A stretch of DNA of 64,000 bases from assembly GCA_964016885.1 (NCBI GenBank), contig OZ024742.1, forward strand, positions 39,060,001 through 39,124,000. The letters are read 5' to 3'. Positions 2,413 to 55,629 of this stretch are shown piece by piece. Numbering within the stretch: the stretch's first letter is position 1; each line of letters begins with the position of its first letter. This DNA comes from Eledone cirrhosa (taxonomy: Eukaryota). A program made the position numbers and the translations under genes. A model generated the notes under the pieces. It made no database searches and was not told the origin of the DNA. It saw only the letters and a list, made by a program, of their open reading frames with translations.

Positions 2413-2620
2413 AAGTTTTAATATAGATGAGATTCTACAGGACTAGAACTGTTTCATTCTTTAGAAATCATCAGGAATCAGATGATTTCTAAAGATGATT
2501 TCTAAAGAATGAAACAGTTCTAGTCCTGTAGAATCTCATCTATATTAAAACTTTTATACTCTGCTATGTATTGAGTACCTTACTTACTGTGGTTACCTCC
2601 GATTCAACCCGGAATAACGT
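2413..2620 (+). mobile_element. Short fold-back element in (TA)n, family A (other copies about 20597..20737, 34330..34475, 43118..43270)
   Basis: About 60 bp inverted repeat (2414..2472 vs 2494..2552), then the tail tactctgctatgtattgagtacc..; (TA)n on both sides. Confidence 0.8.
2431..2479 (-). ncRNA. Type I hammerhead ribozyme (family A)
   Basis: Minus strand reads gattc-CTGATGA-t ttc taaa gaa t-GAAA-CAG ttctagtc CTG-TA-gaatc. Stems I, II and III all pair; cleavage triplet GUA. Confidence 0.7.
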
Positions 2621-2942
2621 ATATATATATATATATATATATATATATATATATATATATATATATATATATATATATATATATATTAATATATAGTAAT
2701 AATAATAAATGTGAAGACTAAATATATATATATATTTCTTAGAGGTATTTTGTTGTAAGAGACTATTTTGAGTTCCTAACTCAATATATACATTTAATAT
2801 ATATATATACATACATACATACATACATACATACATACACACACACACATATATATATATATATATATATATATATATTAAAATAGATTAAAGTTTAAGC
2901 AAAGAATCGCTGCTTTATTACTATATATATATATATATATAT

Positions 2943-3390
2943 ATGGTGGCTGCCAACTCGTTTTCGAGTACGGCCACTACTTTATATCCATGTAGGAGAA
3001 TCCCTACCGATGCGCTGAACGAGTGTTACTTTTTAGTCCAGCCAGTGACTTGAAAACTCTGGTACAAACATTACACCTGTAACAATTATTAACACATAGT
3101 GCTGGGCCCATGGTACCATGTGAGGACAAGTGCAGAGAGATCTCCAGATATAAAGCAATGCCTGTGCCGTGAAGCTTTTATAGTGAGCAAAGGCACTGCA
3201 CAAAGCCAGTCCCACTCTCTTAATCAAGATGATATTTACCAAAAAGAAGAACAAGTCAACATCATTGGATACCATCAGGGTTGCAGGTGTTATATCAGAG
3301 TTTTCCTTCTCCTAGAATTCTGCCTTAACAAAGGCTAAGGGGTCATCTCTCCCGGAGAATTCTGCCTTAACAAAGGCTAAGGGGTCATCT
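2943..3390 (-). mobile_element. Non-autonomous RTE derivative, 5'-truncated copy
   Basis: Closely similar to 3818..4230. Confidence 0.7.
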
Positions 3391-3817
3391 CATACATACA
3401 TACATACATATATATATACATACATACATACATATATATATATATACATACATATATATATATACATACATATATATATATACATACATATATATATATA
3501 TAAATATATACATATATATATATACACATATACATATATATATATATATATATACATACATTCATACATAAATACATATATACATACATATATATATACA
3601 TACATATATACATACATATATATATACATACATATATACATACATATATATATATACATACATATATATATACATACATATATATATACATACATATATA
3701 TATACATACATATATATATACATACATATATATATACATACATACATATATACATACATACATATATACATACATATATATATACATACATATATATATA
3801 CATACATATATATATAC

Positions 3818-4430
3818 ATGGTGGCTGCCAACTCGTTTTCGAGTACGGCCACTACTTTATATCCATGTAGGAGAACCCCTACCAATGCGCTGAACGAATG
3901 TGACTTTTTAGTCCAGCCAGCGACTTGAAAACTCTGGTACAAACACTACACTTGTGACAATTATTGACACATAGTGCTGGGCCCATGGTACCATGTGACG
4001 ACAAGTGCAGAGAGATCTCCAGATATAAAGCAATGCCTGTGCTGTGAAGCTTTTATAGTGAGCAAAGGCACTGCACAAAGCCAGTCCCACTCTCTTAACC
4101 AAGATGATATTTACCAAAAAGAAGAACAATTCAACATCATTGGATACCATCAGGGTTGCAGGTGTTATATCAGAGTTTTCCTTCTCCTAGAATTCTGCCT
4201 TGACAAAGGCTAAGGGGGTCATCTCTCCCGGTGATTTTGGATGGCTATTGACTCTTAAGAGCCTCTTTGCCTTTTGACAGGTTTTGTTTTTAGTCCTGCA
4301 GGATGTCCAAAGCCACCCTCCTCACCAAGAAACCTTGGTGGGGTTGCCAGTTTAGTCGCCAACGACCCGACCATGAGACAGGTTGTACTGGGATACATGT
4401 TACCAGTAGCACCAACTGGTGACCTGACAC
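3818..4430 (-). mobile_element. Bipartite non-autonomous RTE derivative (RTE 5' UTR + RTE 3' end)
   Basis: The 5' part (ctaggagaagg..ctctgatata..gagagtgggactggct) matches the region upstream of the RTE ORF at 62810..63020. The 3' part encodes [25 protein letters not shown], like the RTE C2H2 finger at the end of ORF 55614..56051. It ends in the tail ggccgtactcgaaaacgagttggcagccacc. Confidence 0.75.
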
Positions 4431-5464
4431 AATATATATATATATGTATGTATGTATATATATATACATACATACATACATACATATATATATATTTATA
4501 TATATATGTATATATATATATATATATATATATATATATATATATATATATATAGAGAGATATATATATATATGTATGTATGTATATATATATACATACA
4601 TACATACATACATATATATATATTTATATATATATGTATATATATATATATATATATATATATATATATATATAGAGAGAGAGAGAGAGAGAGAGTCGGA
4701 GAGAGAATCATATCTGTTAGAGTTGCTTGATAACTCTTTCAACACTACACTTAATAGGATTCAGGTTTTCAAGTACTTTTACACGTTAGAAATCATAACA
4801 TTATTGACTAGGACGCTGCATCTAACTTTGTAGCTTTTCATAGTTGCATACAATTTAGAAGTCTTAGTCTTAATTATATTTTACCTTTCGTAATTTATCA
4901 TCTTCCGGATTGGACATGCGTGAAAAATTTCAGTTCTTGTGAAACACCAGAATTAATGAATTTTTTTTATCTAGCATCAGCCATAAGAATAATATGTCAT
5001 AATGTCATATGTGTGTGTATATATATATATATATATATATGAACGATTCCAACCGTGACTAATCCCACTGAAAAGTTTCGTGAAATAGTCTTTTTAAGAC
5101 TATATAGAGCATTTGTAGTTTTTCCAAATTGAAGGATGAGTATTTAACCTTATTTTTATTCTGAGTTAAGACTCTATTGGTTTTGTTCCCTGGATTTCAC
5201 AAAATCTGTGGATAAATTTCTGTCTTGATTTTTTTTTTTGATTGAGTTTGAATTATTTTCCCATATTTTACGTTAAATATTTTCCATCTTGACGTTATAG
5301 TCACTTATATATTATGAAATACTGTTGGCTTCTTGCTCACATTAATCTCTCTCTCTCTCTCTCTCTCTCTCTCTCTCTCTCTCTCTCTCTCTCTCTCTCT
5401 CTCTCTCTCTCTCTCTATATATATATATATATATATATATATATATATATATATATATATATAT

Positions 5465-53036: not shown

Positions 53037-53054
53037 ATATATATATATATATAT

Positions 53055-53945
53055 AAAAGACGTAAAATAAGAAAATTATAAAAATTAACTTACTTACTAA
53101 AATTTCACTCCAACTAATTAGTTTCTGAAAGGGAATAAACATGGTTTCCGAATGGAACAACATGGAGAATGCCTTTCGTCATCAGGAGTCAATTCTCAGC
53201 TAAGTTCCCAGGCGATGCGTGGACACAGGGAACTTATACAAAAATAATTCAGTGGATGGAAAAAAGCAAGCGAGGACTAAATTCAAAGACATTGAAAAAA
53301 TCACTGCCTACTTGGTCGGTGGCAAATTCAAAAGAATCAATCACGTGACATCGAGGTTAATCAGTGAGGAGTGGGGTGTTAAGAAGACAGTAGCTGAACT
53401 ATTACTATGAACTATAGTAGCAGTTTTGGCAAATTTTTGCTCAACAAAACAATTTGGAGATAATTATAAAGAATTAGTATATCTACCAACATATATATAC
53501 ACTCCTCACTGATTAACCTCGATGTCACGTGATTGATTCTTTTGAATTTGCCACCGACCAAGTAGGCAGTGATTTTTTCAATGTCTTGGAATTTAGTCCT
53601 CGCTTGCTTTTTTCCATCCACTGAATTATTTTTGTATAAGTTCCCTGTGTCCACGCATCGCCTGGGAACTTAGCTGAGAATTGACTCCCTGATGACGAAA
53701 GGCATTCTCCATGTTGTTCCATTCGGAAACCATGTTTATTCCCTTTCAGAAACTCATTAGTTGGAGTGAAATTTTAGTAAGTAAGTTAATTTTTATAATT
53801 TTCTTATTTTACGTCTTTCATATATTTGTTCTGCATCCCCTTGCATTGAACCACAAAGTTACTAAGACAAAACCTATATAGCATAAACCTTGCTAGCATA
53901 GGTATGCATCTGTATATATATGTTGGTAGATATACTAATTCTTTA
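53055..53945 (+). mobile_element. Family C fold-back element, copy 2
   Basis: About 320 bp inverted repeat (53056..53373 vs 53500..53818); explains the duplicated MDTGNLY.. ORFs. Confidence 0.85.
53684..53767 (+). ncRNA. Type I hammerhead with extended stem II (mirror copy 53107..53189 on -)
   Basis: actcc-CTGATGA-c gaaagg..cctttc a-GAAA-CTCATTAG-TT-ggagt. Confidence 0.75.
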
Positions 53946-54225
53946 TATATATATATATATATATATATATATATATATATATATATATATATATATATAT
54001 ATATATATAGGAAAATGTTCAAGACCCCGACGACAGAGCTCAACCCGTTTCGACGGCTATTTCTGGACTCAGAAATAGCCATCGAAACGGCTTGAGGTCT
54101 GCTGTCGGGGTCTTGAACATTTTCATATTACCCTCACTACTACCCTACGTATTGAGTACTCTGGTGCGTTATGGTCCATCTGGTTCCTTACCACACTTCC
54201 TTCGTTATATATATATATATAATAT

Positions 54226-54401
54226 ATAAGAACAAAAGATGGTTAAAGGAGTTCCATGTATTTTATTATGCGCAATGGAACTCCTTTAACCATCTTTTGT
54301 TCTTATATATTATGTATACTCCAGTCCTACAAACTGTAGAGTGCTTCTTATCCGATATCTGCATTGCTTTATTGTACTACAATAAAACTCACCTCCTACA
54401 T
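54226..54401 (+). mobile_element. Family E short fold-back element in (TA)n
   Basis: Inverted repeat 54226..54267 vs 54275..54306, plus a tail with the bulged hairpin. Confidence 0.65.
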
Positions 54402-55629
54402 TATATATATATATATATATATATATATATATATATATATATATATATATATATATATATATATATATATATATATATATATATTTATATATATGCATTC
54501 ATGTATATGTGTGTGTCCGCATGTATCTGTGTGTTTCTAAATATATTGTTAATAACTCCCTCTGGTCGAGCAATCTTTGAAGTGTGGGGACTGCTGGAAA
54601 GCTTCCATTACTCATACTTCTCGCCTCCTTCACCACCTCTTCTACGGCTTCGATATAAATACCCCCTCCGCCTCCGTGGTATTTTCTTCGGGGTTATAAG
54701 AGGCTTAGCTCTGTTTCTCGACCGTTATATCGCGTGACTATCTCCCCCTCCGCCTTTTGGGATTCTTTCTCACGTCGTGTAGACGCGTTCTTGAGACTAG
54801 TAAAATGAGGTATCCTCTTGATAAGTCGGCAGACCTCGCAAGGACTCTATATCTTTATGATGTATTGTTCTTGTTTATGCCACGAAACTACGTAGTCGAG
54901 GAATCTAGGAGCAGTTTAGGTATGATACATTTTATTACTAATTATATCTAAATGTTTCTTCTCTCTTCATAATGTATATATATCCATGTGCGTATTTTGC
55001 TTGTAGTTAGCCTCTTATCCGTTAGGACGAAGCTCGTTGAAGAAGTAAATATCCAGTCCGCTTGCTCTAGAAGTCTTATATATTTATATGTGAGCTGATA
55101 GAGTACAGTCTAAGGATTTATAGAAACCCAAGAAGCTAGATTTAACACCTTTCTAGTGGGTCCGGGTATGATTTTACATTCATTTAAATTATTGATTTAT
55201 TGATTTATTGATATTTTTTATCTGATTGTCCCGAATCTTCTATTATCGATTTTTTTATCGTACGGTTGATTTTAGACTTGTTCTATGTGTGACGGTATTT
55301 TAACGATAGTTATAGCTCTGATTCATCTGAATTATTGAGCCCTCTTCCGCTCATTTCGAATTTTGTTTATCGTGAACTCGTGCGCCGATTTTTCGATACT
55401 CGATCATTCTAATATATATATAAATATATATATATATATATATATATATATATATATATATATATATATATATATATATATATATATATATATATATATA
55501 TATCGGATCTAGCTGTCGAAACGGCTGTCGGGGTTCTCAATCTTTTCATATATATTGCATATACACATGCACACGATGTATATATACGCATATAAGCATA
55601 CACACATATATGTATGTATGTATGTATGA

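Follow-up and report, generated by a model that had tools for sequence, protein, structure and literature searches.

What decides where a Penelope-like element (PLE) ends when it inserts, and how the inverted ends and optional tail of such insertions arise, is a question two decades old. It is raised afresh by a stretch of 64,000 nucleotides of the Eledone cirrhosa genome (GenBank assembly GCA_964016885.1, contig OZ024742.1, positions 39,060,001 to 39,124,000, forward strand; hereafter "the window"), in which an earlier note, made from the sequence alone, had drawn attention to a hairpin with a 2-nt bulge near the 3' ends of several (TA)n-inserted repeat families. Our analysis finds this hairpin to be one member of a twin cis motif in the pseudo-long terminal repeats (pLTRs) of the known Hydra clade of PLEs; the motif is real and apparently undescribed, and genomic evidence indicates that it likely sets both ends of an insertion.

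Reality of the bulged hairpin

Masked self-comparison of the window showed that a typical copy begins at (TA)n and proceeds through a long palindrome with a variable centre to the hairpin, a few bases past the end of the mirror symmetry, and then through a tail to a second (TA)n. This layout matches that known from PLEs, in which a 5'-truncated copy in inverted orientation is followed by a tail. The seven hairpins originally named (in families A, B, C, E and K, and two in H) match the window exactly in letters and coordinates; the compensatory pair change claimed for the H copy near 55315 (hairpin 55315-55340) is present, and the degenerate copy placed near 31525 is found at 31524-31544, with AAGC replacing GAGC. 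Scanned strictly on both strands, the window contains 26 matches, with 14 located before (TA)n, 2 internal to tandem units of families H and K, and 10 elsewhere. The 14 end 42-96 nt ahead of a (TA)n run (about 40-95 nt in the earlier note), and nine copies (at 6151, 22531, 26101, 26730, 30659, 30830, 34423, 43162 and 46010) are additional to the earlier list. The conserved core is better written GCTC...T(T/C/A)GAGC, then ACT (GCTC-stem-loop-T[T/C/A]-GAGC-ACT).

Comparison with shuffled sequence, proposed in the earlier note along with a check for enrichment near element 3' ends, came out in favour of the motif. In 90 stretches of 10 kb picked by coordinate outside the window (900 kb), it occurs in 37 of 688 segments of 150 nt lying 5' of (TA)6, as against 6.0 ± 2.1 (maximum 11 in 30 shuffles) when the same segments are shuffled by dinucleotides; background windows away from TA contain it in 78 of 8050 cases. 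The 2-nt bulge is favoured over other 3' bulge sizes in the same 900 kb, 37 occurrences comparing with 21 for 0 nt, 14 for 1 nt, 7 for 3 nt and 6 for 4 nt.

Twin arrangement and covariation

Read-through copies of families B, E, J, C and Y contain a second copy of the motif (hp2) 6-8 nt past the tail end, in addition to the hairpin that precedes the tail (hp1). The order read from the pLTR sequence is hammerhead core, site 1, hp1, tail, site 2, hp2 and the start of the open reading frame (ORF), where sites 1 and 2 are the two positions at which copies end. The idea that families H and K have no hp2 was discarded, minimum free energy folding having revealed a long-loop hp2 that also has the 2-nt bulge and differs between copies by compensatory changes; it begins 8 nt after site 2, as predicted from the twin scheme.

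The arrangement extends well beyond this genome. A metagenome scan yielded 78 Hydra-type loci of 62 families, including 74 zones after a hammerhead core, from 46 families. A sequence-only pattern of the motif was detected in 57 of the 74 pLTR zones and 41 of the 46 families, compared with 2.1 ± 1.4 shuffled zones and none of 154 ORF interiors, and both hairpins were recognized in 28 families. Many of the 17 zones lacking the pattern are 3' pLTRs that end before hp1, or follow spurious cores. As the motif is almost identical to its reverse complement, the reverse-strand score of 23 of 74 does not constitute an independent control. Among published Hydra consensi, the motif can be seen by eye in three of the five with the relevant ends visible (Hydra-2_Amil, Hydra-1_Ajap and Hydra-2_Ajap); that of Hydra-1_Ajap starts 2 nt ahead of hp1 and carries both hairpins. 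Separately, clusters 42/78, 50/79, 54, 68 and 26/59 comprise more families with long-loop or 1-nt-bulge hairpin variants just past an end.

Covariation was assessed on 70 instances, one per family and class, by permuting the 3' partners in 5000 rounds rather than with R-scape; a few instances mis-parsed by the pattern were kept in, and relatedness was handled only via the use of one instance per family. Upper-stem pairing (64/70, 49/66 and 41/51 at successive positions) exceeds that in all 5000 permutations (maxima 56, 40 and 34), with exchanges between C-G and T-A and among A-T, G-C, T-A and C-G. The three bases after the stem are also conserved, as A in 59, C in 67 and T in 65 of the 70.

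The earlier statement that no description of the fold was known accords with our literature search, which found none; Repbase entries, Pyatkov 2004 and Arkhipova 2006 lay outside that search and could mention a stem-loop. The word "hairpin" is absent from the main text of the account of the Hydra clade by Craig et al. (2021; PMC8557442). Rfam covariance models run on 9 loci (39 kb, E up to 1) gave microsatellite, palindrome and tRNA matches only, none describing the hairpins.

Insertions end at two fixed sites

Copies end at two sites, each 0-9 nt ahead of a hairpin. Modal gaps at sites 1 and 2 in this genome, with the TA run counted from its first T, are 8 and 6 nt in family B, 7 and 7 in E, 6 and 8 in J, 7 and 8 in C, and 6 and 8 in Y. 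The ends form two peaks per family, at -80 and 0 in B (hairpins at -72 and +6), -90 and 0 in E (-83 and +7), -93 to -89 and 0 in J (-83 and +8), and -115 and 0 in C (-108 and +8). Of 21 true 3' junctions at metagenomic Hydra loci, 18 were placed by eye at -1 to 5 nt from hp1 or hp2; shared TA bases were counted here as element, and anything at a contig end, in a 55-nt assembly overlap or within an ORF was excluded.

These positions could in principle be incidental, the hairpins serving translation or transcription of the downstream ORF or being merely inherited, with ends set by TA microhomology alone. Such a view accommodates the location of hp2 shortly ahead of the ATG, and the fact that ends fall in TA-rich bases. 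We consider it scarcely credible, however, given that the non-coding families C, H and K keep both hairpins, that other TA-rich spots in the pLTR seldom serve as ends, and that both hairpins hold the same offset across families whose proteins are 30-45% identical.

Structured RNA, in the form of the 3' stem-loops of LINEs and SINEs and the 3' untranslated region (UTR) of R2, selects the template for target-primed reverse transcription; those signals lie inside the copied 3' end and set that same end. A structured signal that picks the template is the likeness proposed here. In contrast, each hairpin of the twin motif lies 3' of the end it tracks, there are two of them, and a simple insertion always omits one. 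Their position rules out identity with a LINE-type 3' stem-loop, and the LINE-like 3' geometry envisaged in the earlier note must be abandoned: hp1, in the tail, marks the end of the inverted arm and not the adjoining 3' end, which is marked by hp2, outside most insertions. The more general proposal of a shared cis signal of PLEs is borne out.

Two rules of fold-back insertions

Two genomic rules narrow the mechanism further. By the first, one end falls at each site: this holds for 125 of 132 fold-back insertions, the others being one with both ends at site 2 and six unclassified, with none ending twice at site 1. Tail queries served to retrieve many of the 132 loci, but 31 of 32 fold-backs in the unselected 900 kb obey the rule as well, and arms there are split 58 to 69 between the sites. 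The second rule is partial overlap of the arms. Among 21 insertions with an assignable central spacer, the arm with the greater 5' extent is that of site 1 in 11 cases and that of site 2 in 10; in the 11 with the longer site 1 arm, neither arm contains the other. Since each arm of those 11 holds sequence missing from the other, both come from a longer template.

These rules bear directly on self-priming, by which a single priming at site 2 would be followed by folding back of the cDNA and copying of itself until a stop at hp1. Proposed for Penelope palindromes (PMC3846280), this route would yield one end of each kind and is congenial to the prevalence of near-perfect palindromes (a short spacer in 84 of the 125). 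It demands, however, that the site 2 arm contain the site 1 arm, contrary to 11 of the 21 resolvable insertions, and ORF-bearing direct copies with a site 1 end also occur (L182 and several metagenomic loci). As the sole route it is already contradicted, and we hold it to be very improbable.

Somewhat less remote, if still improbable, is direction by the hairpins of RNA cleavage or 3'-end formation just upstream, by a host nuclease or an unknown ribozyme, with reverse transcriptase (RT) then priming, as in LINEs, at the RNA 3' ends so generated. Sharp ends at a fixed offset are what this would predict, and self-cleaving motifs are known in PLE RNAs (PMC4209133). Nevertheless, neither a catalytic core nor an Rfam match is present at the hairpins, two separately cut RNAs alone would not give the one-of-each rule in 125 of 132 insertions, and the lizard element PAc (a Poseidon element of Anolis) uses unprocessed RNA (Frangieh et al. 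2024; PMC11167929). The ends and arms, as read from genomic copies, point to two primings at fixed, different sites, for which two RTs on one RNA appear the best fit.

Families as Hydra-clade elements and their derivatives

The families bearing the hairpin had been regarded as otherwise unrelated; they are instead related, either as Hydra-clade pLTRs or as derivatives sharing the motif. Genome searches and fetched stretches attached a Hydra ORF to families B, E, J and N and to the young family Y, and found none for A, C, H, K and M. A single ORF with RT followed by a C-terminal GIY-YIG endonuclease (EN) is seen in L178 and L382. Among 51 aligned proteins, drawn from this genome, metagenomes and a protein search, YRDD occurs in all 51, Y[IVY]G in 45, RW[KRT] in 47, DK[TS] in 49 and DKG in one, along with the CxCx5C linker (43), CxxC in the form CxLC (48) and CxH (47); the window's own PLE fragment has the linker and CxLC. 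A Pfam search gave no RT or GIY-YIG match, its sole match lying under the cut-off. These diagnostic motifs place families B, E and J as pLTRs of Hydra-clade PLEs and not of Naiad or Penelope/Poseidon elements (the earlier note had pointed to Naiad/Penelope 3' ends): Naiad, with its N-terminal GIY-YIG and DKA, is ruled out by the C-terminal EN and the DKT/DKS motif found here. The clade as described (PMC8557442) shares the C-terminal GIY-YIG, RWK, DKT, the CxCx5C linker, CxxC and CxH and the (TA)n target, and its pLTR hammerhead has a candidate counterpart here; the target, partial tandems, inverted 5' copy and tail are all seen in the present elements. The published tail of 30-40 bp differs from the hairpin spacing observed here, which ranges from 44 to 93 nt among metagenomic families and from 78 to 116 nt among B, E, J, C and Y.

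Judged on core letters only, a hammerhead core pattern lies 5' of hp1 in 64 of 78 metagenomic loci and is found in families A, E, J and Y, being degenerate in B. The hairpin begins 61-170 nt past the start of the core, and was rejected as a part of the hammerhead. Families C, H and K are non-coding tandem units, with C matches ~518 nt apart and units of 629 nt in H and 619 nt in K, and on sequence they look like PLE derivatives. Their organization as non-coding tandem units of ~520-630 nt is shared with non-LTR retrozymes (PMC7229834; bioRxiv 10.64898/2026.07.22.740005), in which every unit has a type I hammerhead, whereas C and K have only minimal cores and H half a core. No cis signal for mobilisation is named in the portions of those two reports available to us. 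Family A, known from 13 copies met in other loci and further copies fetched later, is unlinked to any Hydra ORF.

Family Y (L382-L401, e.g. L386:1678-3996) has an intact 773-aa ORF (open frame of 785 codons) and at least 150 matches at 99-100% identity, and is thereby suited to experimental work. Its 3' UTR includes a second hammerhead-like core and long TA/TG-rich repeats. At L384, near position 1256, a family A tail runs directly into the loop of hp1 in a family Y copy, the two meeting at a short stretch that they share; this suggests a template switch or nested insertion between families.

A proposed paired priming from one RNA

We propose, with a probability of roughly 70%, that each hairpin in the RNA positions an RT that starts just upstream of it, and that two primings from opposite target strands yield the inverted arm and the tail. 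The endonuclease would nick both strands of (TA)n; an RT bound at hp2 would use one nick to prime at site 2, and a second RT, bound at hp1, would use the other to prime at site 1, in both cases with help from the TA-rich bases immediately 5' of the hairpin. Head-to-head joining of the two 5'-truncated cDNAs would produce a tailless inverted arm and a tailed direct arm, so that hp1 would be copied and hp2 left out. Retention of the signal would allow the tandem units of C, H and K to be mobilised in trans.

We infer, with the help of in vitro data on PAc (PMC11167929), that the fold works as RNA, that RT binds it and that both ends are made from one RNA. RT of that element starts at two internal RNA sites bounding the tail, a feature shared with the two end sites here; RNA 3' of the start sites is required, both target strands are cut and extended, and a dimer is predicted. 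Our own modelling of residues 1-490 of the family Y protein as a pair scored 0.00 and carries no weight either way. PAc differs in belonging to another clade and in having no conserved binding motif defined, and the available part of that article contains no report of the one-of-each rule; its RNA letters (Fig. S1) show, by eye, no CUC...GAG hairpin. The same figure does show two short GGC-loop-GCC hairpins ~40 nt apart, near the tail length, which are a possible Poseidon counterpart of the twin signal.

Several observations weigh against the proposal of hairpin-positioned priming. Families H and K have a perfect hp1, yet solely site 2 ends were seen (23 and 25 ends, respectively), and the one read-through copy of family A gives no clean hp2. 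Three of the 21 metagenomic junctions are off-pattern (L256, L263 and L269), and among published consensi the 5' end of Hydra-1_Obim is without a clear motif and Hydra-1_Crog has only a variant (by eye). The longer arm could not be called in 104 of the 125 fold-backs (84 with a short spacer, 12 with no arm found, 5 with no reference and 3 unassigned). A very abundant Neptune/Nematis-like family of the same genome (L332-L351), with two ends ~58-60 nt apart and no motif in the tail between them, obeys the one-of-each rule in 20 of 22 insertions; the motif is therefore not required for that architecture in all PLEs. Lastly, stem mismatches (G-U versus A-C, 8 versus 5) and folding of sense versus antisense strands (median pair probability 0.89 versus 0.91) do not tell RNA from cDNA, which leaves DNA-level trimming by the endonuclease as the main rival.

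Under that rival, the GIY-YIG endonuclease would bind the hairpin or cruciform in cDNA and cut the TA-rich bases 5' of it, trimming an over-long intermediate to sites 1 and 2. Craig et al. explained the tail by resolution through the EN (PMC8557442), cleavage by the D. virilis EN depends on the tail (as cited in PMC11167929), the T/A-rich bases 5' of each hairpin resemble the target, the lower stem and its ACT(C) flank together come close to a palindrome, and the strand comparisons favour neither nucleic acid. Yet trimming requires cDNA extending beyond hp2 that is later removed, reverse transcription of the lizard element begins at both sites in vitro (PMC11167929), and the loops of ~70-90 nt in H and K, together with the fixed one-sided bulge, argue against plain double-stranded recognition. 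We consider action in DNA unlikely, though it deserves more weight than any other alternative.

Hairpin positioning of RT, if true, would account for the inverted ends and tails of these elements. Where a single in vitro study gave two start sites without a signal, the present data add a clade-wide, covarying motif at a fixed offset from both sites. In a more general form, for which the odds seem about even, two RT-endonuclease subunits would occupy two copies of one bulged hairpin on a single RNA and begin synthesis from opposite strands of cut (TA)n, each at a set distance of a few bases upstream, recalling the template boundary of telomerase, which belongs to the sister clade. The inverted pLTR, the tail and the mobilisation in trans of retrozyme-like units would all follow from this single rule, and other PLE clades would use twin motifs of their own to the same effect. 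In practice the motif offers a way to locate true element boundaries and non-autonomous partners, and could provide a short portable RNA tag should Hydra proteins serve for gene insertion.

Element copies and other features of the window

Family A is represented on the forward strand by an insertion at 2414..2619, in which the inverted arm, with a hammerhead-like core at 2452-2474 on the reverse strand, has its mirror end at 2552 (site 1), followed by hp1 (2557-2577) and a tail reaching (TA)n (site 2). Further A copies lie at 34331..34474 (forward; hp1 34423-34443) and 43122..43270 (reverse; hp1 43162-43182). A decayed, 5'-truncated Hydra-clade PLE on the reverse strand at 22483..24804 preserves the RT C-terminus, CxCx5C linker, GIY-YIG (~24804-23860) and 3' UTR, and ends in a family B pLTR whose hp1 (22531-22554) has the bulge GT, followed by tail and (TA)n on the same strand. 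Family B fold-back insertions occupy 29757..29914 on the forward strand (palindrome 29757-29834, hp1 29843-29866, tail) and 6103..6298 on the reverse (hp1 6151-6174). Both family C insertions are on the forward strand: a fold-back at 53056..53943 (palindrome 53056-53818, hp1 53828-53851, tail), and one at 45485..46129 (hp1 46010-46033) with the longer arm being the inverted, site 1 arm. The family E fold-back at 54222..54401 (forward; palindrome 54222-54310, hp1 54317-54343, tail) represents the pLTR of a Hydra ORF (L176).

Family H, always on the forward strand, comprises a copy at 5466..5966 (hp1 5859-5884), a partial tandem at 25975..26827 (unit 629 nt; hp1 at 26101-26126 and 26730-26755, site 2 at 26198, long-loop hp2 26207-26309) and the diverged copy with the compensatory pair change, at 55065..55411. 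The K partial tandem (reverse, 29959..30757; unit 619 nt) has hp1 at 30659-30685 and 30039-30065, site 2 at 30578 and a long-loop hp2 at 30477-30569. Absent from the earlier list is a family J insertion on the reverse strand at 30771..31336 (palindrome 30866-31189, hammerhead core 30920-30956, hp1 30830-30854), corresponding to the pLTR of another Hydra ORF (L177). The degenerate hp1 belongs to a family M insertion at 31434..31590 (forward; palindrome 31434-31508), the motif being intact in other M copies.

Another (TA)n fold-back family, at 24831-25142 and 51896-53037, has two ends and a tRNA-like part (Rfam tRNA match, L031), without the motif. A small element at 26886-27090 (reverse strand) has a clean hammerhead core (26982-27005) and then just a minimal CTC-N4-GAG, possibly a reduced motif. 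The window also contains two related two-ORF non-LTR retrotransposons (zinc-knuckle ORF1, endonuclease-RT ORF2) at 9431-14674 and 15077-20311, 84% alike over 3.4 kb, the former with intact frames. Copies of another non-LTR element, with RT, a C-terminal restriction-like endonuclease region and a (TACA)n end, lie at 1-648 and 57378-60963 on the reverse strand, and a 3.8-kb minisatellite of AAC-rich units of 27-30 nt occupies 37866-41683.

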